Source of the DNA: a bacterium
GTDB lineage: Bacteria > J088 > JAWLBW01
Assembly: GCA_041690355.1 (NCBI GenBank)
Contig: JAWLHK010000001.1
Span: 361,376 to 425,375 of the forward strand
Length of the DNA: 64,000 bases
Direction: 5' to 3'
In this document: positions 2,993 to 54,730 of the stretch, piece by piece
Layout: each line of letters begins with the position of its first letter
Numbering within the stretch: the stretch's first letter is position 1
Made by a program: the position numbers and the translations under genes
Notes under the pieces: model-generated
What the model saw: only the letters and a program-made list of their open reading frames with translations
What the model was told of the DNA's origin: nothing
Database searches by the model: none

Positions 2993-3379
2993 ATGGAAGT
3001 GCGGCGCATCCTGGCCATCGACGACGACGAAGACATCCTGACGGTCGTCCAGAAAGTGCTGCGCCGTGCAGGCTGGGAGATACATACGGCCGGCTCGCAC
3101 GAAGAGGCCATGGCCTTGGCGGCCACGGTACGCCCCGAACTCATTCTGCTCGACATGGACATGCCCGGGTGCGACGGCGCCTGCCTGCTCGAGCGGCTGC
3201 GCGGCCTGCCTGAAACGGCGGCGGTTCCCGTCTTTTTTCTTTCGGGGGGATTCGGCGCCGACGATTCGGACACCATCCCCGGCGCCCAGGGCCTGCTACG
3301 CAAACCGTTCGGGCCGACGGAGCTGCCCGCGCAGATCCGTCGCCTTCTCGACGCGCTCGAACCGTCGGCGTCCGCATGA
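2993..3379 (+). CDS. Single-domain response regulator (CheY-like receiver)
   Basis: AIDDDED acidic pocket, LILLDMDMP phospho-Asp, FFLSGG and LRKP. The start was reassigned to an internal ATG; the ORF-track start at 2867 is an unsupported upstream extension. The stop overlaps the next gene start (ATGA). Confidence 0.8.
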   Translation: MEVRRILAIDDDEDILTVVQKVLRRAGWEIHTAGSHEEAMALAATVRPELILLDMDMPGCDGACLLERLRGLPETAAVPVFFLSGGFGADDSDTIPGAQGLLRKPFGPTELPAQIRRLLDALEPSASA

Positions 3380-5400
3380 AAATTCTTCTCGTCGACGACG
3401 ATCAGGCCTTCGTCGATCTCCTGCAGAAAACGCTGATCCACCACGGCCACACGGTAAGCGTCGCCTATCGTATCCGTGACGCGCGAACCCTTCTCGAGCG
3501 TGAGCGGCCGGATCTCGTCGTCGTCGACGGGCTGCTCCCCGACGGTAACGGAATGGCGTGGATCGAGGAGCGGCGGCAGGCCGGCGACACCTCGACCTTT
3601 CTCTTTCTCTCGGCGTTCTTCCGCGATCTGGCCAGCTTCCGCCGATTGACGCGCGACCTCTCGGTTCCGCTGATTCTGCACAAACCGATTTCACCGCTCG
3701 AGTTCATGCGGCAGGCGGCGCACTTTCTCGAGCCGACGGCTTCAGCCCCGGTTCCCCAGGCGCTGCCCGGCACGGCCCTCCTGCTGCCGCCGGCGGAATT
3801 CGACGATACCATCGATGATTTCGCCGCCGAGCTTGCGGGCCTGCGCGCCGAGTATCAGGCGAAGCTTGCCGTGCGGTTCGAAGACCTGGGGACGGCGCTT
3901 GCCGAGGCCGAACGCGACCCTGACCGGCACGAAACCGCCCTTCGCCTCGCCCACCGCCTGCACGGCACGGCCGGCTCGTACGGCTTTCACGAAGTGAGCG
4001 CCGCAGCGGGCACCATCGAAACCGCCCTGCGGGCGACCCCGCCCCGGTTCGCACAGGCGCGCGAGATGCTGCACCGCATGGTGCGACTGGGGGCGCTCAG
4101 CGATCCGCGGTCCGAGGCGGCCATGCCGGGCGCCTGGGTCGCCACCGTGCTCGTGATCGATTCCGATCCGGCCTTCCAGGTTGCCGTCCGCCATCTGGCC
4201 GACCGCGCCCTGGTACGCGTGTTCGGCGCCGCAGATGCCGCTGAGGCCCTCGCGCTGGTCTCCCGCAGCGAGTTCGACGGCATTCTGGTGAATCTGAGCG
4301 CCGCGCTGGAGAACGACGCCGCCCTTCTGGCCACGCTGCGCGGCCTCAAAGAGACGACCGGCGTGCCCATCGCCGTCCTGGCCGACGAAGCCGACGACGG
4401 CATCGAGAACCGCATTGCGGCGCAGCACGCGGGAGCCTCGCTCTTTCTCACGCGCCCGCTCGACTATCCCTCGTTCACGGACGGCGTGCGTTATCTCGCG
4501 GCCCTGCGGCATGCGGCTCGGGCCACCGTGCTGGCCGTCGACGACGACGCAGACTTTCTGCAGCTGCTCGAAAGTATGCTGCGCTCTGCCGGGTACCAGG
4601 CCGCGGTGTCAGCGGAACCGGAGTCGATACTCACGCTGCTAGCCGATCGGCAACCCGACGTCCTTCTGCTCGACGTCGACATGCCGACCATGTCGGGGTT
4701 CGACGTGTGCCGCATGCTGCGCACCCACTCGCGCTGGCGCGAGCTTCCCGTTCTCTTTCTGACCTCGCGCACCGATATGGAGTCGCGCATCGAAGCGTTT
4801 CGCGCGGGGGGCGACGACCTGCTCGTCAAGCCGATTGTGCGCGAGGAACTCGCCGCGCGCCTCGATCTGCGGCTCGAGCGCAATCGCCTGCTGCGTGAGA
4901 AGATGGAGCACGACGGCTTGACCGGCCTCCTGCTGCGCCCCCCATTTCTCACCGCGCTTGCCGCGCGCCTGCACGAGGCGGCGCGCAAGAACGCAAGCCT
5001 CGCGGTGGCCTTGCTCGACGTCGACCATTTCAAAACGGTCAATGATCGATACGGCCACGGGGTCGGCGACCGCGTCCTTGCGCGCCTCGGGGCGTCGATT
5101 GCCGGCCGGTTCCGCGCCGAGGATCTGCGCGCGCGCTGGGGCGGCGAGGAGATCGCGCTGGCTTTTCTCGAACAGTCGGCCGAGATGGCGCACGCGCTGC
5201 TCGAACGGCTGCTCGCCGAGTTTTCGCGTATCGAGTTCCACAGCGATGCGGGAGAATCCTTCCACGTCCAGTTCAGCGCCGGCGTGGCTGCGTTTCCCGC
5301 GGATGGCGACACGGTGGAACTGTTGCTGAAACGCGCCGACGATCGCCTGCTGGCCGCCAAGCGCGCGGGGCGCAACCGCATCAACTCGAGTGACGAGTGA
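3376..5400 (+). CDS. Multidomain response regulator / diguanylate cyclase: REC-HPt-(pseudo)REC-REC-GGDEF
   Basis: REC1 has DDD, VVVDGLLPD and LHKP. An HPt-like helix carries LAHRLHGTAGSYGF. REC2 has the phospho-acceptor replaced (ILVNL) and K replaced by R. REC3 is intact (DDD, LLLDVDMP, FLTSR, LVKP). A C-terminal GGDEF domain has the RWGGEEI active-site variant and an RAED (RxxD) I-site. Confidence 0.8.
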   Translation: MKILLVDDDQAFVDLLQKTLIHHGHTVSVAYRIRDARTLLERERPDLVVVDGLLPDGNGMAWIEERRQAGDTSTFLFLSAFFRDLASFRRLTRDLSVPLILHKPISPLEFMRQAAHFLEPTASAPVPQALPGTALLLPPAEFDDTIDDFAAELAGLRAEYQAKLAVRFEDLGTALAEAERDPDRHETALRLAHRLHGTAGSYGFHEVSAAAGTIETALRATPPRFAQAREMLHRMVRLGALSDPRSEAAMPGAWVATVLVIDSDPAFQVAVRHLADRALVRVFGAADAAEALALVSRSEFDGILVNLSAALENDAALLATLRGLKETTGVPIAVLADEADDGIENRIAAQHAGASLFLTRPLDYPSFTDGVRYLAALRHAARATVLAVDDDADFLQLLESMLRSAGYQAAVSAEPESILTLLADRQPDVLLLDVDMPTMSGFDVCRMLRTHSRWRELPVLFLTSRTDMESRIEAFRAGGDDLLVKPIVREELAARLDLRLERNRLLREKMEHDGLTGLLLRPPFLTALAARLHEAARKNASLAVALLDVDHFKTVNDRYGHGVGDRVLARLGASIAGRFRAEDLRARWGGEEIALAFLEQSAEMAHALLERLLAEFSRIEFHSDAGESFHVQFSAGVAAFPADGDTVELLLKRADDRLLAAKRAGRNRINSSDE

Positions 5401-5450
5401 CTTAGAGTTTTGAGTTCCGAGTTTTGAGTGACGAGTGACGAGTGACGATC
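5388..5450 (+). repeat. Heptanucleotide tandem array A: about 9 in-phase units of GAGTGAC / TTTGAGT type
   Basis: gagtgac gagtgac ttagagt tttgagt tccgagt tttgagt gacgagt gacgagt gacgatc. The first two units encode the last residues and the stop codon of the GGDEF gene. Confidence 0.8.
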
Positions 5451-5522
5451 TGTCCGGAAAGGACCTTGGTGCCAGTCTGGCGCTCAGTGCTTGGCGCTCG
5501 CTCCCCCTGCTCTTGCTTCTTA

Positions 5523-5550
5523 AGAATTAAGAATCAGGAATCAGGAATGC
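5523..5550 (+). repeat. Heptanucleotide tandem array B: 4 units of AAGAATC / AGGAATC type
   Basis: aagaatt aagaatc aggaatc aggaatg, 72 nt downstream of array A. Confidence 0.75.
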
Positions 5551-5617: not shown

Positions 5618-5896
5618 ATGGCGAGTACAGAACCTACGGCGCCCCAGGTGTCGATGACCCGGCTCATCGTGACGATTGCGGTTTTCGTCGTCATCGGATT
5701 GCCCATGGTCGGCTACCTGTGGGAAACGCTCAACGGCGTGCTCGCGCTGCGGAGCAGCTGGCAACAGGTGGGGATCGCGATTCCCGTCCTGGCCGTCTTT
5801 CTCGTGCTGCTCTTTCTGCTGGCGCGCACGATCGAGCGGTGGAACGACGGAGCGTCTTCACGGGCCGGCCGCGCCGGCGGAGGGAGTCATGGCTGA
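5618..5896 (+). CDS. Small 2-TM membrane protein, function unknown (first gene of the oxidase cluster)
   Basis: Two hydrophobic helices. RBS AGAGAGG upstream. Overlaps the next gene by 7 nt. Confidence 0.45.
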   Translation: MASTEPTAPQVSMTRLIVTIAVFVVIGLPMVGYLWETLNGVLALRSSWQQVGIAIPVLAVFLVLLFLLARTIERWNDGASSRAGRAGGGSHG

Positions 5897-6071
5897 TCAG
5901 GATCCGGAACGCAAAGAGCCGCTGGCCATGGGGAGCGACTGGCCAGAAGACACCGAGTTCGGCCCCGGCGAAGAGCCGGTGGCGACCGGTACCTTCTTTC
6001 TCATGATCGTCTTTCTCATGTTGATCTTCGGCTTCTGGGTGATGATGTACGTGCTTCTGCTGGGGCGCTGA
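5890..6071 (+). CDS. 60-aa single-TM protein, candidate small accessory subunit of the B-family oxidase (subunit IIa-like)
   Basis: Internal ATG of ORF 5676..6071. Acidic N-terminus plus one C-terminal TM helix. Sits immediately upstream of and adjacent to the oxidase subunit II gene. Confidence 0.4.
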
Positions 6072-6072
6072 C

Positions 6073-6540
6073 ATGAAGGTCCATCGCTACGACAAGGCGT
6101 TTCTCATCGTTGGCGGCGTCCTTCTGGTGGGCTGCCTGTTCGCCCTGCTCTACGCCTCCGTGGGCATGGGGATCCACCTGCCCGGACGCCACGCAACCAT
6201 CGACCCCCAGGCCGTGCACACGACGCCCCCCTTCGATAATCCCGGCGTACGCCAGCTTCCCGACGGACGAGTCGAAGCTGTCGTCGTGGGGCAGATCTGG
6301 AGCTTCGTCCCCGCAGAGATTCGCCTCCCCCTCGGCAAGGAAATCGTCTTCACGGTAACTTCCGCCGACGTGATCCACGGGTTCCACATCGACGGCACGC
6401 GCGTCAACATGATGATGATCCCCGGGCAGATCTCGCGGAACACCTACACGTTCCGGCGCCCGGGAGAATACCTGCTCGTCTGCCATGAATACTGCGGCGC
6501 GGCCCACCATACGATGGCCGGAAAGGTGATTGTGGAATGA
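6073..6540 (+). CDS. cbaB: Cytochrome c oxidase subunit II, ba3/B-family (CuA domain, no cytochrome c domain)
   Basis: One N-terminal TM helix. CuA ligand motif HGFHIDG ... CHEYCGAAHHTM. Short, about 155 aa, as in Thermus ba3 subunit II. Confidence 0.8.
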   Translation: MKVHRYDKAFLIVGGVLLVGCLFALLYASVGMGIHLPGRHATIDPQAVHTTPPFDNPGVRQLPDGRVEAVVVGQIWSFVPAEIRLPLGKEIVFTVTSADVIHGFHIDGTRVNMMMIPGQISRNTYTFRRPGEYLLVCHEYCGAAHHTMAGKVIVE

Positions 6541-8207
6541 GCGCGACAACTTCGATTGTCCTCGATCCCCTGGGATTCGACCTTCCCCGCGATCACCGCC
6601 GGGCCATCCGGTGGACGGTCTATGTCGGCTATCTCGCCCTGACGGCCGGGATCTTCCACGGCCTGGCCCAATCGCTCTCCTACGCGAAGATCGACATCCT
6701 CGAGTACTTCCCCTTTCTGCGCAGCTACTACCAGGGGCTGACCGCGCATGGCGTGGCCAACGCGCTGATCTTCACGTTCTCGTTCAGCAACGCCTTTCTG
6801 CCCCTGATGACCGCGCGCGCCCTGAGCGCGAAGTTGAGCGGGTTTCTGCTCTGGCTCTCGCTCGATCTGCTCATCGCGGGGAACATTCTCGTCATCTATG
6901 CCGTGACGACGAACCAGGCCAGCGTTCTCTACACGTCCTATGCGCCTCTCCAGGCCCACTGGACGTACTATATCGGACTGGTCCTTGTGGTCGTCTCGAC
7001 CTGGGTGGCGCTGGTGAACATGCTCGGCGTCTACCGGCGATACCGCAAGGCTCATCCGGACGCGCGCGTTCCGCTGCTCGCGCACATCGCGGTCATCAGC
7101 TACGTCATGTGGTTTCTGGCCTCGCTGCCGATCGCAACCAGTTTCCTCGCGTTTCTCACCCCTTGGACAGTGGGGTTGACCGAGAAGACCGATCCGCTCT
7201 TCATCCGCACACTGTTCTGGTTCACGGGGCACGCCATCGTCTATGCATGGCTGCTTCCGGGCTACGTTTCCTGGTACGCCACTGTGCCGCGCCTGGCAGG
7301 GGGGAAAATCATCAGTGACCCGCTGACGCGCTTCGTGTTCATCCTCTTTCTGCTCTACTCGATTCCGACTGGATTCCACCACCAGTACACCGACCCCGGA
7401 ATCAGCACGACGATGAAGGGGATCCACGCCGTGCTGACCTTCATCGTCTTTTTTCCAAGTCTGGCAACGGCGTTCACGATGATGGCGGCCCTCGAGATGG
7501 GCGGCCGTCGCCACGGCGGCACCGGCCTGTTCGGGTGGATCCGCAAGATCCCGTGGGGCGACCCATCACTTGCGGCACAGGTTCTGGCCATGATCACGTT
7601 CGTGTTCGGCGGCATCACGGGCCTGATCAACGCAAGCTTCACCATGAATCAGGTCATCCACAACACGACCTGGGTCCCCGGGCACTTCCACATGACCGTC
7701 GGGAGCGCGGTCGCCCTGACCCTGATGGGTGTCGCCTATTGGATGATCCCGTATCTGACGGGACGCGCGCTCTTCAGCCGCACCATGGGGCTGGCTTCTT
7801 CATGGATTTATACGATCGGGGTGCTCATCTTCGCGCGTGGCATGATCTCGGCGGGGCTCGCGGGCATGCCGCGGCGGACCTTCATCGCCCAGGCGACGTA
7901 CTACCGGGAAGGCTGGGAGCTTTCAGGGGCGATTACGGCCGTCGGCGGAACGCTCATGTTCATCGGCATCGCCCTGTTCTTCATCGACATGCTGCTGACC
8001 ACCGTGGCGGGAAAGAAAGGGGCCGGCCCACGCGACATCCCGCTTTCGTCGACACTGTTCGCTCCGGCGCGCCACGGATGGGAACGGCACCTCGACCGAC
8101 TTGGCTGGTGGGTCGTGGCGGCCATCGCGCTGATTCTGATCGCCTACGGGCCGTTCTTTCTGACCTACGCGCCGCGCTTCGTTTCGCCAGGCTTTCAGAT
8201 CTGGTAG
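6537..8207 (+). CDS. cbaA: Cytochrome c oxidase subunit I, B-family (ba3-type heme-copper oxidase)
   Basis: Polytopic protein of 556 aa. GHFHMTVGS and other conserved His-containing helices of heme-copper oxidase subunit I. Overlaps the subunit II stop (ATGA). Confidence 0.85.
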   Translation: MSATTSIVLDPLGFDLPRDHRRAIRWTVYVGYLALTAGIFHGLAQSLSYAKIDILEYFPFLRSYYQGLTAHGVANALIFTFSFSNAFLPLMTARALSAKLSGFLLWLSLDLLIAGNILVIYAVTTNQASVLYTSYAPLQAHWTYYIGLVLVVVSTWVALVNMLGVYRRYRKAHPDARVPLLAHIAVISYVMWFLASLPIATSFLAFLTPWTVGLTEKTDPLFIRTLFWFTGHAIVYAWLLPGYVSWYATVPRLAGGKIISDPLTRFVFILFLLYSIPTGFHHQYTDPGISTTMKGIHAVLTFIVFFPSLATAFTMMAALEMGGRRHGGTGLFGWIRKIPWGDPSLAAQVLAMITFVFGGITGLINASFTMNQVIHNTTWVPGHFHMTVGSAVALTLMGVAYWMIPYLTGRALFSRTMGLASSWIYTIGVLIFARGMISAGLAGMPRRTFIAQATYYREGWELSGAITAVGGTLMFIGIALFFIDMLLTTVAGKKGAGPRDIPLSSTLFAPARHGWERHLDRLGWWVVAAIALILIAYGPFFLTYAPRFVSPGFQIW

Positions 8208-11508: not shown

Positions 11509-11557
11509 GCAGAAGCGCCAAGCACCAAGCGCCGAGCGTCAAGCAAGCAAGGACAAG
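11509..11557. repeat. Heptanucleotide tandem array: about 7 units of NNCAAGC type
   Basis: cagaagc gccaagc accaagc gccgagc gtcaagc aagcaag gacaagc. Confidence 0.6.
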
Positions 11558-11574
11558 CGCCCTGTGTTCTTTCC

Positions 11575-11609
11575 GGTCAATCGTCAATCGTAAATTGTAA
11601 GTCGTCAAT
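11575..11609. repeat. Heptanucleotide tandem array: 5 units of GTCAATC type
   Basis: gtcaatc gtcaatc gtaaatt gtaagtc gtcaatc, 17 nt after the previous array. Confidence 0.65.
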
Positions 11610-11691
11610 CGATCGGAATTCCCTTGCCGCTTTCCAAAGGGGTGCGGTAGATTGGCAGTTTACGCCCCGCTATCCCCATGGAGGTTCTGCG

Positions 11692-17577: not shown

Positions 17578-17596
17578 GGCGACGCCGTTCCCGTTT

Positions 17597-17624
17597 CAGG
17601 AATCAAGAATCTGGAATCAGGAAT
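17597..17624 (+). repeat. Heptanucleotide tandem array B copy: 4 units of CAGGAAT type
   Basis: caggaat caagaat ctggaat caggaat, 20 nt after the thioesterase stop, followed by the hairpin at 17633-17652. Confidence 0.7.
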
Positions 17625-17632
17625 GCAACCTT

Positions 17633-17652
17633 CCTGACGCGCCAGCGTCAGG
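17633..17652. terminator. Perfect hairpin between convergent genes (thioesterase / yebC-like), candidate bidirectional terminator
   Basis: CCTGACGC-GCCA-GCGTCAGG, overlapping the yebC-like stop codon. Confidence 0.5.
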
Positions 17653-18385
17653 TAAGGTTGTGAAAGACTTTCTGGACGTCGTCGTCCTGCTCGAGGCGGT
17701 CGACCAGCTTGAGCACTTCCTGCGCGGCTTCGTCCGAGAGCTCCACCGGCGTCGTCGGTATCCACTCTACTTCGGCGCTGACGGGCGTGATCCCCCGATC
17801 TTCGAGGGCCTTCTGCAGTGTGCCGAAATCGGCGAAGGCGCAGCGGATCACCAGGATGTCCTTGCCGTCATCGGTCGTGCTCTCGCCCATCTCTTCGAGC
17901 CCGTGGTCGATCAGCTCGAGCTCGAGCTCGTCCTGGTCGACTCCCTTGGGGTCGATCTTGAAGACCCCCATCTTCTTGAACTGGAACGCCACGCTCCCCG
18001 ACGTTCCCAGATTCCCGTGGCCGCGGTCGAAATGCGAGCGCATGTTCGCCACGGTGCGCGTCGGATTGTCGGTCGCGGTCTCGACCAGGATGGCGACGCC
18101 GTGAGGGCCATAGCCCTCGTACAGAATCTCGCTGTAGTCTTCCTTGTCCTTGCCCATCGCCCGCTTGATCGCGCCTTCAACCCTGTCCTTGGGCATGTTG
18201 ACGCTCTTGGCGTTCTGCAGGCAGCGGCGCAAGGCCGGGTTCGAGGCCGGATCGGGGCCGCCCGCCTTGACGGCGATGACGATCTCCTTGCCGATGCGCG
18301 TGAACTGCTTGGACATCTTGTCCCAGCGGGCGAACATCGTATGCTTGCGCGTCTCAAATATGCGTCCCATAAAAGCCTCTGACAC
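17648..18385 (-). CDS. YebC/PmpR-family transcriptional regulatory protein
   Basis: About 245 aa. N-terminal basic helix ([20 protein letters not shown]) and three-domain YebC-like composition. An alternative start 15 nt downstream. Confidence 0.7.
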
Positions 18386-25326: not shown

Positions 25327-25506
25327 ATGGCAGTGGAATACAAGGTCGCCGAAACGAGCGACGTCAGCGACAGCGGCCTCGAAAAGATTCTCAACCAGCT
25401 GACGGCGCAGGGCTGGGCCCTCGAAGGGATTCATTTCGCCATGCGCGACAACAGCCGCCGCCCGGCCATGGCCTTCGTCATCTTCTCGCGCGAGCGCGCG
25501 GATTGA
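25327..25506 (+). CDS. DUF4177-like small protein (59 aa)
   Basis: Not in the ORF track (<60 aa). MAVEYKVAE ... QGWALEGIHFA pattern typical of DUF4177. The stop codon is the first unit of a heptamer array. Confidence 0.45.
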   Translation: MAVEYKVAETSDVSDSGLEKILNQLTAQGWALEGIHFAMRDNSRRPAMAFVIFSRERAD

Positions 25507-25551
25507 TTCCTGATTCCGATTCCTGATTCCTGATTCCTGATTCTTGAGAGA
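25504..25551 (-). repeat. Heptanucleotide tandem array B copy (reverse orientation): about 7 units of TGATTCC
   Basis: tgattcc tgattcc gattcc tgattcc tgattcc tgattcc tgattct. Starts at the stop codon of the DUF4177-like gene. Read on the minus strand it is (GGAATCA)n. Confidence 0.8.
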
Positions 25552-25575: not shown

Positions 25576-25617
25576 CGTCACTCGTCACTCGCAACTCGCA
25601 ACTCGTAACTCGCCACT
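25576..25617 (-). repeat. Heptanucleotide tandem array A copy (reverse orientation): 6 units of GTCACTC / GCAACTC
   Basis: gtcactc gtcactc gcaactc gcaactc gtaactc gccactc. Abuts the stop codon of the minus-strand CTP_transf_1-family gene. Confidence 0.8.
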
Positions 25618-25621
25618 CCCC

Positions 25622-33435: not shown

Positions 33436-36400
33436 TCAGCCGGGAACCTTGGGGATGGTGAACCAGAAGGTCGTTTTCCCGTCACCGCTCTCAGCCCCGA
33501 CGAGGCCGCCGTGCGCCTCCACGATGCCCTTGACGATATAGAGCCCCAGGCCCGTCCCCTCGATCCCCTTGCGTATCGATACCCGGGAGCGATGGTAGCG
33601 CTCGAAGAGCTGCTCGCGCGCTCCCCGGTCGAGCTCTCCGTCGTTGACGACGCTGACGCGTACCTGCGCGGTTTCCGATCGAACGTCTATTGCGACGGCG
33701 CCGTCCCGGACGCCGTACTTGACCGCGTTCGAAAGCAGATTGGAAAGGACCTGCTCCATGCGCATCTTGTCGGCAAACGCGAGCGCTGGTTGCTCCCCGC
33801 TGGTCACGCGGATCGTGATGCCCAGCGCGGCAAATCTGTCGGCCGCCTCGCACGCAACCTCTCGCAGATCGACCATCAATCGGCGCAACGAAAGCTGGTG
33901 CGCCTCGATCTTCGACGCATCCACCATGTCGCCGATAATCCGGTTCATCAGCGCCGCGCTGGCATGCATGTGGTCGAGTTCACGCATGACTTCAGGGTCT
34001 GCGCCGGTGCACCGGTGGCGCAGCATTTCGACACGCGCCAGGACGGTGGTCAGCGGCTGACGCAGATCATGGGCGATAACCCCCGTCCACCGTTCGCGCG
34101 TCTGCTCGAGCGCGCGCTTTTCTGAGATGTCCTCGAAGATCATGACGGCGCCGATGATGTTCTGGTCGTCGTCCAGGATCGGCGCCGCACTCTTGTAAAC
34201 GTACAGTTCGCTGCCGTCCGGGCGCCGGACGAGGTACTCGGCCATGCGCACGACGTTACCGCGCAGGACACGGGGCACGACCCGTTCTTCTTCGGAGAGA
34301 GGCGAACCGTCGATGTGAAAGAGCAGGTCCTCGAACTGCGCCGCCCCCCCCTCCGAGCGCAGGCGTACGCCGAACAATTCGCAGGTTCGGCGATTGAACA
34401 TGAAGCTGCCGTCGCGCTTCACCAGTATGATGCCGTTGGGCGAGTGGTTGATCAGCGCCTCGAACCAGCGCTTTTCTTCGTCGAGCGATTGCAGCAGCGA
34501 TTCGCGCTCCGCCTCCTTCCGGTGCTGCTCGGTCACGTCCTGGGTCGTGCCGACGAGGCGTTCGGGCCGCCCGGGAGGGCCGACGATGCTCGCCTTCTCC
34601 TGAATGAAGCGTTCCCGCCCGTCGGGCAGTTGAATCCGGTGCGTGACTTCATAGGCCTCCTGGCGGCTCAGGGCCTCGCGCACCCGCTCTTCGACCCGCG
34701 GCCGGTCGTCAGGGTTGACCATGGAAAGGAACATGGGATAGGTAATCTTCGGACGCTCTTCTCCGAAACCGAACAGGCGGTATGCTTCGTCAGACCACTG
34801 CACTTCGTTGGTACGCAGGTCCCAGTACCAGCTGCCGATCAGGCCGACCTCCTGCGCCTCGCGCAAGCGTTCCTCGTTCAGGCGCAGGCGCCGTTCGGTC
34901 TCGATCCGGTCGGTGATGTCGGTCCAGTACCCTGCCAGCCCGATGATCGCCCCCTTGTCGTCGAAGCGGGGCTCATGGACGGCGTCGAAAATGAGGTTGC
35001 GCTCTCCGGTGCTGATTTCCAGCTCGCAACGCGAAGGTTGGCGCGTCTCGATCACCCGGCGCTTCTCGATGACGATGCGCGCCGCCTGGTCGGGACGGAA
35101 CAGGTCGAGATCAGTCCTGCCGACTGCAGAGTCGTCGAAGGGCGGCCGGATGCGGGCGAACCACGTATAGAACAACCGGGTGTCCTGATAGAAGATGGTG
35201 CCGGGCGCATGAGCAGCGACGAAGGCCAGACGACGTTCGCTTTCGGCCAGCGCCTGCTCGGATCGTTCGCGCTCGGTGATATCGCGTGAAATCCCTTCTA
35301 CGGCGACGATGCGCTCATCATGAACGACGGGCGTGAACCCGATTTCGTGGCAGACGCCCGAGCCGTCCCTATGGCTCAGGTAGGCCCGGACGGGAGAGCG
35401 CGACTCCCGCTCTCCATTGAGCATGGCGCGGACCATGGCCCGGGTTTCGGGGGACATGAGGCGAAAGACGAGTTCCGGATCGGCGTCGAACTCCTCGGGG
35501 GCGTATCCCAGCAGTTTCCGGGTTGCACCCGACAGGTAGTCGAACCGGTTCGTCTGCAGGCTCCAGCGGAACACGATGTCGCGGGCGTTCTCGGCCATCA
35601 GCCGGAAGCGCTCTTCGCTTTCGGCGAGCGCCTCCTCACGCCGCCTGGCCTCGCTCATGTCGACGATCTGGGCAATGTAGTAACGGGCATACCCGTTCTC
35701 GTCCCGGACGGCCGATCCACTCAGGATGGCGTGGATGACCGCGCCGTTCTTGTGCACGTAGCGCTTCGAAAGCCGGTAGTTCGGGATTTCGCCCGTGCGG
35801 AGCCTCTCGGCCAGCTCGAGGTCGACGTTCAGGTCGTCGGGGTGGGTGACGTCCTGAAAGCGTATCCGCCCGAGCTCTTCGGGCGTGTAGCCCAGCATCT
35901 CGCACAGGGCCCGGTTGGCCCGCTCGAAGGTGCCATCAAGGCCGACGATGGCCATGCCGACAGGGGCCGTCTCGATGATCTCGTCGACCTTGCGCGTGCT
36001 CTCGTCCAGCTGGGCACGTGCCTGCGCGCTCGAGATGCCGCTGGCGAAAACCTCACCGATCGCCACGAAGGTCTCGCATTCCTCATCGCTCACCACCCGC
36101 TCTTCGGGAAAACCCAGGGTCAGCGTTCCGACGCAGCTGCTGTGGACGATGAGCGGAACCGCAATGACCGTGTGGGACCCGCTGGCGGCCATGACGCGGG
36201 CCGCGAGCGTGAGTTCGGAATCGAGAGGCCGCCGCAGATCCGCGACCTGAATCTCCTTCCGGTTGGCCGCGCGCGCCGCAAGGAGCGGTGAATCCAGCGA
36301 AAGCTCGCAGACCTGCTCGACGAGCTGCGGCGGGATACCGTCGGAGGCGATCAGCCCCAGGCGGCGCCGGTCGGGGTCGAGAAGGTGCACGTGCGCCATG

Positions 36401-36657
36401 CTCGCGCCGGCCTGACGGAACTGGTCGACGATGGCCCGCGCGATCCGCTCGACGCTCCCCTCGCGCACGACGACGGCGCCGATGCGGGCAAGCGCGGCAA
36501 AGCTGTGCGCCTGCGGAAATCCGTCTACCCTGCGCGCCTCGCCGCGCGGCCGGCGCTCAGGATCTCGGGATGGCTGCTCGCTCATGAAACTCGCATCAAC
36601 CTCGCCGCGGGGCGGCTCTCCGGGCGTCAGGGATGAATAGGGGCATTTCAGCTCCAT
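33436..36657 (-). CDS. Multi-sensor histidine kinase (GAF plus about 5 PAS plus HisKA plus HATPase), no receiver
   Basis: H-box GVIAHDLRQPLT. G-boxes GTGLGLYIVKGIVEAHGG. Repeated PAS modules. Confidence 0.8.
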   Translation of the reverse strand: MELKCPYSSLTPGEPPRGEVDASFMSEQPSRDPERRPRGEARRVDGFPQAHSFAALARIGAVVVREGSVERIARAIVDQFRQAGASMAHVHLLDPDRRRLGLIASDGIPPQLVEQVCELSLDSPLLAARAANRKEIQVADLRRPLDSELTLAARVMAASGSHTVIAVPLIVHSSCVGTLTLGFPEERVVSDEECETFVAIGEVFASGISSAQARAQLDESTRKVDEIIETAPVGMAIVGLDGTFERANRALCEMLGYTPEELGRIRFQDVTHPDDLNVDLELAERLRTGEIPNYRLSKRYVHKNGAVIHAILSGSAVRDENGYARYYIAQIVDMSEARRREEALAESEERFRLMAENARDIVFRWSLQTNRFDYLSGATRKLLGYAPEEFDADPELVFRLMSPETRAMVRAMLNGERESRSPVRAYLSHRDGSGVCHEIGFTPVVHDERIVAVEGISRDITERERSEQALAESERRLAFVAAHAPGTIFYQDTRLFYTWFARIRPPFDDSAVGRTDLDLFRPDQAARIVIEKRRVIETRQPSRCELEISTGERNLIFDAVHEPRFDDKGAIIGLAGYWTDITDRIETERRLRLNEERLREAQEVGLIGSWYWDLRTNEVQWSDEAYRLFGFGEERPKITYPMFLSMVNPDDRPRVEERVREALSRQEAYEVTHRIQLPDGRERFIQEKASIVGPPGRPERLVGTTQDVTEQHRKEAERESLLQSLDEEKRWFEALINHSPNGIILVKRDGSFMFNRRTCELFGVRLRSEGGAAQFEDLLFHIDGSPLSEEERVVPRVLRGNVVRMAEYLVRRPDGSELYVYKSAAPILDDDQNIIGAVMIFEDISEKRALEQTRERWTGVIAHDLRQPLTTVLARVEMLRHRCTGADPEVMRELDHMHASAALMNRIIGDMVDASKIEAHQLSLRRLMVDLREVACEAADRFAALGITIRVTSGEQPALAFADKMRMEQVLSNLLSNAVKYGVRDGAVAIDVRSETAQVRVSVVNDGELDRGAREQLFERYHRSRVSIRKGIEGTGLGLYIVKGIVEAHGGLVGAESGDGKTTFWFTIPKVPG

Positions 36658-36785
36658 TATCGACGGTTCCTCGGGCCCGTCGTGATAGAACTCCCTGGAA
36701 CTCCCTTCGCCCGCCCCCCTGCCGGGCCTGGTGCGATCGCCCGCCCCTTGAAGGGTATCGCTCCGGGCTGTAGAGTATAGGTTTC

Positions 36786-54688: not shown

Positions 54689-54695
54689 GGGATAC

Positions 54696-54730
54696 GAGTG
54701 ACGAGTTACGAGTGACGAGTGACAAGTGGC
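54696..54730 (+). repeat. Heptanucleotide tandem array A copy: 5 units of CGAGTGA type
   Basis: cgagtga cgagtta cgagtga cgagtga caagtgg, starting 8 nt after the acylase stop codon. Confidence 0.7.

Follow-up and report, generated by a model that had tools for sequence, protein, structure and literature searches.

A Receiver Gene Overlapping a REC-Hpt-REC-REC-GGDEF Gene: Probable Kinase-Distal Part of a Phosphorelay with Cyclic di-GMP Synthesis as Output

Results

The Gene Pair and Its Products

Two genes, here named A and B, lie at positions 2,993 to 5,400 of a 64,000-nucleotide stretch of a 438-kb bacterial contig (the window; GTDB lineage J088, JAWLBW01; assembly GCA_041690355.1, contig JAWLHK010000001.1, forward-strand positions 361,376 to 425,375). 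Gene A encodes a stand-alone receiver (REC). Gene B encodes a protein with, in this order, a receiver (REC1), a histidine phosphotransfer (Hpt) domain, a pseudo-receiver (REC2), a third receiver (REC3), and a GGDEF diguanylate cyclase domain (table 1). Domain and profile searches, structure modeling, and comparison with homologous loci establish these domain identities, the conservation of the phosphorylation sites, the integrity of the catalytic residues, and the conservation of the gene neighborhood. A preliminary description, based on the letters and the open reading frames (ORFs), had presented the locus as a kinase-less phosphorelay-like operon. It had read both ORFs and their ATGA overlap correctly, and each of its domain calls was reproduced, from the stand-alone receiver to the RxxD-type inhibitory site (I-site) of the GGDEF domain. 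The Pfam search that it had proposed recovered the boundaries of the REC, Hpt, and GGDEF domains, and the strings that it quoted map to residues 192–204 (AHRLHGTAGSYGF), 303–307 (ILVNL), and 580–583 (RAED) of protein B.

Table 1. Features of the A-B Locus and of the Rest of the Window
Feature	Position in window	Strand	Residues	Basis or remarks
Gene A, stand-alone receiver	2993..3379	+	128 amino acids	ATG at 2993, stop codon 3377–3379
ATGA start/stop overlap of A and B	3376..3379	+		Reads GCATGAAA
Gene B, REC1-Hpt-REC2(pseudo)-REC3-GGDEF	3376..5400	+	674 amino acids	Pfam, homology, AlphaFold2 model
REC1	3376..3735	+	1–120	Intact: D8/D9, D51, S79, K103
Hpt four-helix bundle	3811..4101	+	146–242	Pfam, model, profile search
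REC2, pseudo-receiver	4138..4518	+	255–381	Positions D262-S263-N306-A336-R360
REC3	4522..4875	+	383–500	Intact: D389–391, D433 (codon 4672–4674), T463, K485
GGDEF domain	4906..5379	+	511–668	Pfam 126 bits, TIGR00254 132 bits
I-site RAED	5113–5124	+	580–583	Five residues ahead of the GG motif
Active-site motif GGEEI	5140–5154	+	589–593	Read from sequence
ba3-type cytochrome oxidase operon	5890–8207	+		
COX2	6073–6540	+		Confirmed by Pfam
Putative oxidase subunit I	6537–8207	+	556 amino acids	
YebC/PmpR	17648–18370	−		
Orphan GAF/multi-PAS/HisKA/HATPase_c kinase	33436..36657 (open frame 33436–36783)	−		Pfam; start at 36657 or 36585
Intergenic heptamer arrays	5387–5448, 5520–5548, 11513–11611, 17596–17624, 25504–25547, 25577–25618, 54694–54730			

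The ATGA overlap suggests translational coupling of the two genes, and overlapping or abutting gene junctions of this kind are also found in three related loci (L001, L004, and L075). Both reading frames are intact, with a G+C content at third codon positions (GC3) of 0.79–0.80. In gene B, Pfam recognizes three Response_reg stretches, which together score 162.6 bits, besides the GGDEF domain. An AlphaFold2 model of the whole protein, computed on an alignment of homologs, has a mean predicted local distance difference test (pLDDT) of 90.2. All conservation counts given below derive from one alignment of gene B with 43 full-length homologs (44 sequences).

The Stand-Alone Receiver

That an intact single receiver precedes the multidomain gene was confirmed by a Response_reg match of 66.5 bits and by a complete active site as read from the sequence: D10/D11, the phospho-acceptor D54, S84, and K104. 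The start codon at 2993 fits the N-termini of related receivers. The best BLAST matches of gene A (36–44% identity) are single-domain receivers adjoining either homologs of gene B or stand-alone Hpt genes; those beside a stand-alone Hpt of the same type belong to loci L046, L056, L058, L059, L063, and L072. As the best matches of gene A are the receivers encoded beside B homologs or stand-alone Hpt genes, we argue for a direct partnership of the A-type receiver with this type of Hpt domain. These best matches are the equivalents of gene A in about 25 related loci. The two-gene modules described below point to an older unit of A-type receiver and Hpt, which would later have been fused into B-type proteins.

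Two other views of gene A were rejected. It is not unusually degenerate: it shares 30–39% identity with its relatives, which are equally far from one another. Nor is it an intermediary receiver of the “FATGUY” type discussed below for REC1, the corresponding motif of its family being an ordinary F-M-T-A-K.

Two-gene modules consisting of an A-type receiver and a small stand-alone Hpt gene of the B type were located in L058 (700–1400), L059 (2633–3483), and L072 (3435–4189), with further receiver and stand-alone Hpt modules in L063 (5728–8650, behind a hybrid kinase), L046, and L056. The B homolog of L026 (7851–10295) carries an additional, A-like receiver at its C-terminus, giving a REC-Hpt-REC-REC-GGDEF-REC fusion protein of 814 amino acids. 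The B homologs of L018 (1724–3724) and L031 (2–2026) each appear to be distributed over two ORFs, either by true fission or by an assembly frameshift.

The Hpt Domain

Recognition of the Hpt segment by profile search had been named beforehand as a test of this call, as had conservation of its histidine in orthologs. Both tests came out in its favor. Residues 157–235 match the Pfam Hpt family (PF01627) with 38.2 bits, above the gathering cutoff of 24.6. The phospho-acceptor H193 (codon 3952–3954), retained in 41 of the 44 sequences, sits in helix 2 within AHRLHGTAGSYGF, a conserved motif that fits the H-x-x-K/H-G-x-A-G context of Hpt domains. In the AlphaFold2 model, the four helices span residues 146–180, 182–201, 205–219, and 225–242, with disordered linkers on both sides, and the segment modeled in isolation again forms a four-helix bundle (pLDDT 94.7, predicted template modeling score [pTM] 0.84). 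A profile built from the segment matches the P1 domain of CheA (1tqg, E = 3.9e-10), a Shewanella HPt (3myf), and the HPt of BarA. The top natural Foldseek matches are HPt domains (3myf, RcsD/YojN, plant AHP1, CheA P1, and ArcB), although with weak E-values (at least 0.04, none reaching 0.001), as expected for a short helical bundle. We propose that phosphotransfer takes place between H193 and the receiver aspartates, a prediction made from sequence and models.

Three Receivers of Different Character

REC1 retains D51 in 40, S79 in 38, and K103 in 39 of the 44 sequences and was modeled as a (beta-alpha)5 fold. Its beta4 strand reads F-L-S-A-F-F in gene B, the motif conserved in the family being F77-x-S79-A80-F81-W82, and its beta5 strand carries V/I in place of the aromatic Y/F. 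A “FATGUY” motif in beta4 (type F-x-[S/T]-G-Y), along with a beta5 strand devoid of aromatic residues, marks intermediary receivers such as those of CckA, MrrA, and SdrG (PMC9981736; Bruderlin et al. 2023). The beta4 strand of REC1 is reminiscent of this motif, which is only a lead, at the motif level, that REC1 may be an intermediary receiver.

REC2 keeps the (beta-alpha)5 receiver fold in the model and matches receivers in phmmer (independent E-value 8e-6). Where a canonical receiver reads D-D-D-T/S-K, REC2 reads D-S-N-A-R. Four of the five active-site residues are thus lost, which makes it a true pseudo-receiver in this genome. The preliminary description had noticed the replaced phospho-aspartate within ILVNL; N306 occupies this position, and further active-site positions have changed as well. 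Across the alignment, the phospho-site column holds D in 26, H in 7, and N in 6 of 44 sequences, the Myxococcus group having H. As 26 sequences keep the aspartate, the degeneration is lineage specific, a pointer that the phospho-site of the middle receiver may have been lost independently in several lineages.

REC3 gives the best Pfam receiver stretch of the protein (residues 385–496), and its D433, T463, and K485 are conserved in 40, 37, and 41 of the 44 sequences, respectively. At the switch position 482 (codon 4819–4821), located in beta5 three residues before K485, Tyr is found in 36 of the 44 and Leu only in gene B. In the model, a continuous helix (489–511) formed by alpha5 and the linker joins REC3 to the GGDEF domain. 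The T/Y switch pair found across the family, together with this helix, indicates that REC3 is likely the terminal receiver controlling the output.

The Diguanylate Cyclase Domain

The preliminary description had announced a GGEEF-type cyclase with an RxxD I-site. The I-site was confirmed (R580 in 43 and D583 in all 44 sequences), as were the cyclase residues; the motif itself reads GGEEI and not GGEEF. Its last position is F in 37, L in 5, and I in 2 of the 44 sequences, the closest relatives carrying GGEEL. The catalytic residues D548, D550, N556, D565, R587, K662, and R666 are conserved, the first four and the last two almost without exception. By our own reading of the motif alignment, gene B has the counterparts of the metal- and substrate-binding residues D327, N335, D344, K442, and R446 of PleD. 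With all the catalytic residues that were checked and the I-site intact, the domain is predicted to be an active cyclase. Among solved structures, the REC3-GGDEF part matches PleD, DgcR, and WspR best. The NCBIfam models of PleD (NF007135, 252 bits against a cutoff of 474) and of DgcR (186 against 500) both remain below threshold on gene B.

A Large and Already Catalogued Family

A homology search with gene B retrieved 291 proteins at E ≤ 1e-10, and most of the 120 listed share the same Pfam domain set. They include ABF91599.1 of Myxococcus xanthus DK1622, proteins of Archangium, Hyalangium, and Pyxidicoccus, and many from metagenome-assembled genomes. The named relatives are mostly Myxococcota, and the family occurs in other phyla too. 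A REC1-Hpt-REC2 profile searched against 1.84 billion cluster representatives (50% identity) gave at least 150 matches, all with E ≤ 4e-86. Most of these are 650–720 amino acids long and span the whole module; gene B itself fits the profile over residues 2–377 (E = 4e-143).

The M. xanthus protein MXAN7362 has been tabulated as REC-Hpt-REC-REC-GGDEF with the I-site RRED and the active site GGEEF (Petters et al. 2012, PMC3509222, Table S4), and ABF91599.1 carries exactly these two signatures. The domain order noted in the preliminary description thus stands and its rarity does not: the architecture was tabulated in 2012, and its N-terminal module is represented by at least 150 clusters at 50% identity. 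It is common, already catalogued, and functionally uncharacterized. An in-frame deletion of MXAN7362 has been made, and 21 of 24 mutants in c-di-GMP (cyclic di-GMP) genes had no defect in growth, gliding, or type IV pilus-dependent motility, sgmT being named among the affected ones (Skotnicka et al. 2015, PMC4686200). Our literature search found nothing on MXAN7362 beyond PMC3509222, PMC4686200, and PMC4877007, and a search pairing “REC-Hpt” with GGDEF found nothing on this subject.

Gene Neighborhood in Relatives

We compared the surroundings of B homologs in M. xanthus, five metagenome contigs, and 70 loci from species-representative genomes. The scan of the latter ran from a six-sequence alignment, and loci were annotated by ORF calls and phmmer/hmmsearch. 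In most of them, an A-type receiver adjoins the B homolog, upstream or downstream, often with overlapping start and stop codons. A histidine kinase adjoins it in about 20. The term “kinase-less” used in the preliminary description therefore holds for the present locus and not for the family.

Five gene orders involving a kinase were distinguished. REC-kinase-B is found in M. xanthus, where the genes overlap and the kinase is hybrid, and in L015, L016, L021, L025, and L076; kinase-REC-B in L003, L004, and L075; and B-REC followed by a convergent kinase in L007, L009, L010, L012, L013, L014, L019, and L023. The order kinase-B-REC occurs in L017 and L030, and REC-B-kinase in L033. The adjacent kinases are of the HisKA type, and about 12 of the 19 checked carry C-terminal receivers; such hybrid kinases would need an Hpt. 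The three closest relatives with known context (L003, L004, and L075, with 51%, 49%, and 42% identity) all have the order kinase-REC-B, the kinase of L075 being a contig-edge fragment that ends in the C-terminus of HATPase_c with the G2 box.

At the present locus, the immediate upstream neighbor of gene A is a divergent DUF2961 gene. Since it occupies the place where the three closest relatives have the kinase, the latter was probably lost or moved, and the kinase-less state looks derived in this clade. The gap between the DUF2961 gene and gene A, only about 50–90 bp long, showed no trace of a deleted kinase.

The only other two-component gene of the 64-kb window encodes an orphan kinase with GAF and several PAS domains, some 28 kb from A-B, with neither a receiver domain nor an adjacent response regulator. 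It is the sole candidate for the input kinase in the window, and no more than a candidate. In its catalytic core, it shares 36.7% identity (138 bits) with the kinase adjoining the B homolog of L003, an unrelated kinase scoring 124 bits. This comparison is not discriminating, given the closeness of the two scores; the kinases adjoining B homologs are themselves no nearer to each other than to unrelated kinases.

Other Features of the Window

About 490 bp beyond the end of gene B begins the operon of a ba3-type cytochrome oxidase, which has the same orientation. Its COX2 gene is followed by an ORF read as putative subunit I, and a short ORF ending at 6071 has the appearance of a putative subunit IIa. 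In L003 (1–3328), the B homolog lies beside a cbb3 oxidase/FixG cluster; in L004 (4470–6575) and L076 (8066–9966), a small ORF and a GMC oxidoreductase gene follow it. Respiratory and redox genes near gene B and its relatives may point to redox state or oxygen as the input.

The YebC/PmpR protein encoded in the window is 77–80% identical to its best matches, the named ones belonging to Chitinophagaceae (Bacteroidota), Deltaproteobacteria, and Binatia; as a taxonomic marker, it was uninformative. The intergenic tandem arrays of heptamers fall into two main families, GAGTGAC and TCAGGAA (equivalent to GAATCAG or GGAATCA). GAGTGAC arrays start at or just past a stop codon, on the strand of the gene that ends there, and gene B itself ends in codons (agt gac gag tga) that belong to such a heptamer array. 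Allowing at most two mismatches, GAGTGACGAGTGAC occurs 11 times against 0.49 expected. Neither Rfam families, c-di-GMP riboswitches included, nor tRNA genes were detected in the window, and the surroundings of the A-B operon gave no match to a sigma-70-like promoter.

Discussion

A Proposed Phosphorelay

We favor, with moderate confidence, the view that A and B constitute the kinase-distal portion of a His-Asp-His-Asp phosphorelay, a multistep one that has c-di-GMP synthesis as its output. A multistep relay follows from the conserved His and Asp sites taken together with the frequency of hybrid kinases beside the relatives and the pairing of the A-type receiver with the Hpt domain. The preliminary description had gone one step further and proposed a branched phosphorelay ending in c-di-GMP synthesis. 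The adjacent kinases, mostly hybrid, and the adjacent A-type receiver bear out the relay; the branching is an inference.

The direction of phosphoryl flow, the assignment of the receivers that feed or drain the Hpt domain, what A does, and which kinase takes part are all inferred, and the scheme would run as follows. A histidine kinase encoded elsewhere in the genome would phosphorylate an entry receiver, most likely REC1, which is fused to the Hpt domain, or alternatively the own receiver of a hybrid kinase. The phosphoryl group would then move to H193, which would hand it to D433 of REC3. Once phosphorylated, REC3 would favor dimers in which two GGDEF domains are placed so that they can make c-di-GMP, as happens in PleD, WspR, and DgcR, and the RAED I-site would provide feedback inhibition by the product. 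REC2, dead as a phospho-acceptor, is probably a structural or dimerization adaptor, comparable to PleD's second receiver. For receiver A, an exchange of phosphoryl groups with the Hpt domain of B is probable, either as a second branch or as a phosphate sink.

Several observations weigh against this scheme. Motif and phmmer scans of all ORFs of the window revealed no HisKA or HATPase_c domain at the A-B operon or within 28 kb of it. About one third of the related loci, among them L005, L008, L011, L022, L024, L029, L032, and L050, show no adjacent kinase, so the family is not strictly dependent on a dedicated neighbor. When the whole REC1 domain was searched against solved structures, PhoP and RssB came first, and none of the FATGUY proteins SdrG, Sma0114, and the CckA receiver is among the 60 matches listed. 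Y482L at the switch position of REC3, specific to gene B, and F593I in the GGDEF motif could both weaken the output. The pTM of the gene B model is only 0.57, so that the relative arrangement of the domains is not predicted. The family's only experimental data, from the genetics of M. xanthus, point the same way. The two mutants affected besides sgmT are reportedly dmxA and tmoK; MXAN7362 would then belong to the 21 genes whose deletion caused no defect, and its loss would be without motility or growth phenotype. In a developmental study of 2016, only dmxB, pmxA, sgmT, and tmoK were named as defective, and not MXAN7362 (PMC4877007).

Alternative Readings

The phosphoryl group could also travel in the opposite sense. 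A kinase would phosphorylate REC3 directly and thereby activate the cyclase, and the Hpt domain, REC1, and A would drain REC3 as a built-in sink, sharpening or ending the response. Hpt-mediated transfer is reversible (PMC12632262), six of the kinases adjoining B homologs are non-hybrid ones that could act on a receiver without an intermediate, and a sink would suit the presence of a single-domain receiver next to an Hpt. This topology nevertheless seems unlikely, as most adjacent kinases are hybrid, and such kinases normally route phosphate via an Hpt and not directly to the terminal regulator (PMC3509222); moreover, REC1 is conserved as well as REC3 and is fused straight to the Hpt domain. 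We give very little credence to a split CheA-like system, in which a separate kinase catalytic domain would phosphorylate the Hpt domain from ATP without any receiver, and the Hpt domain would serve REC1, REC3, and A. It would account for the Hpt domain matching CheA P1 best, both by sequence and by profile, but the H-x-x-[KH]-G-x-A-G signature is common to HPt domains generally, neither the window nor the examined related loci showed a protein with the P3–P5 domains of CheA, and the adjacent kinases are of the HisKA type with their own phospho-histidine.

Two further readings concern the output and the state of the genes. With GGEEI instead of GGEEF and an intact I-site, the GGDEF domain might be inactive as a cyclase and act as a c-di-GMP receptor or an interaction module, so that the relay would sense c-di-GMP; M. 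xanthus SgmT provides a precedent for a GGDEF domain acting as a receptor (PMC3509222). We regard this as improbable, because GGEE and all the checked catalytic residues are kept and only the last, non-catalytic position of the motif differs, relatives having GGEEL. There is also a rather slim chance that the pair no longer signals since the loss of its dedicated kinase and is drifting toward pseudogenes. The kinase of the three closest relatives is missing here, four of the five REC2 active-site residues are gone, Y482L is unique, and F593I is rare. Against such decay stand the intact frames with their high GC3, the retained phospho-acceptor and catalytic residues, the preserved start/stop coupling, and a gene A that has diverged from its relatives no more than they have from one another. 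The degeneration of REC2, for its part, is widespread in kinase-linked relatives too, as exemplified by the H phospho-site in Myxococcus. Each of these four readings fits the conservation pattern less well than the kinase-distal relay proposed above.

More tentatively, the relay of this lineage may have been uncoupled from a dedicated kinase and may integrate inputs in a kinase-agnostic way. Phosphoryl groups from one or more orphan kinases, for instance the GAF-PAS kinase of the window, would be gathered by REC1 and A, the single Hpt domain would pool them and redistribute them to REC3, and REC2 would be a PleD-like adaptor that turns REC3 phosphorylation into dimerization of the cyclase. We consider this possible, though on present evidence doubtful. 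If true, B would be a self-contained intramolecular Asp-His-Asp relay, which, to our knowledge, has not yet been shown biochemically for any diguanylate cyclase.

Comparison with Known Systems

The closest named counterpart of gene B is MXAN7362, which has the same five-domain order, nearly the same length (673 against 674 amino acids), and 43% identity over 99% of the sequence. The two share the Hpt histidine, the D51 and D433 equivalents, the RxxD I-site, and GGEE, with an A-type receiver in the same operon. However, a hybrid DAHL-PAS kinase lies between the receiver gene and the B homolog in M. xanthus, whereas the locus of gene B is devoid of a kinase. The REC2 phospho-site is H in MXAN7362 and N in gene B, and the active-site motifs are GGEEF and GGEEI, respectively.

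Among proteins of solved structure, the best match of gene B is PleD of Caulobacter crescentus (E = 1.4e-49), in which a phosphorylatable receiver and a pseudo-receiver likewise precede a GGDEF domain with an RxxD I-site. PleD-type activation consists of phosphorylation-driven dimerization (PMC12632262), and this is likely, by analogy, the output logic of gene B. The order of the receivers is reversed: the active one comes first in PleD, but in gene B the pseudo-receiver REC2 precedes the active REC3. PleD also lacks the Hpt domain and the third receiver, and gene B falls outside the PleD equivalog family, as its NCBIfam score indicates. DgcR of Leptospira (6zxm, E = 5e-39) and WspR of Pseudomonas (3bre, E = 1e-32) align over their full length with the REC3-linker-GGDEF part and share its continuous helix; unlike gene B, both have only two domains and receive their phosphate directly from a kinase or CheA.

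Kinase-less proteins joining a phosphotransfer domain and a receiver are known from the CbbSR/CbbRR1/CbbRR2 relay of Rhodopseudomonas palustris, in which CbbRR1 is a “PR” protein with phosphotransfer and receiver domains (PMC3018481). In the branched CckA-ChpT-CtrA/CpdR relay of Caulobacter, an Hpt-type protein is supplied by a hybrid kinase and passes phosphate to two receivers, of which one is single-domain (PMC9981736). The likeness drawn here is one of layout. These two relays consist of separate proteins with a transcriptional or proteolytic output, whereas gene B unites receiver, Hpt, adaptor, terminal receiver, and enzyme in one polypeptide. A homologous Hpt-REC-REC core is found in the relatives P0106 and P0082 (30–34% identity over 53–74% of the query). 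P0106, from the cyanobacterium Allocoleopsis, is organized as REC-Trans_reg_C-Hpt-REC-REC and P0082 as REC-Trans_reg_C-Hpt-REC-REC-GGDEF. They differ from gene B in that their first receiver is part of a full OmpR-type regulator with a DNA-binding domain and that the GGDEF domain is optional.

The A-B pair is thus a further member of a large, known, and uncharacterized family, and its kinase-less state is a recurrent local variant. For this locus, the result is mainly a correct annotation and not a discovery. The family itself packs nearly a whole phosphorelay together with an enzymatic output into one protein and is widespread, mostly in Myxococcota. Our survey gives three pointers to how it may work: the A-type receiver and the Hpt domain as a conserved module, REC3 as the terminal and REC1 as an intermediary receiver, and a recurrent loss of the REC2 phospho-site.

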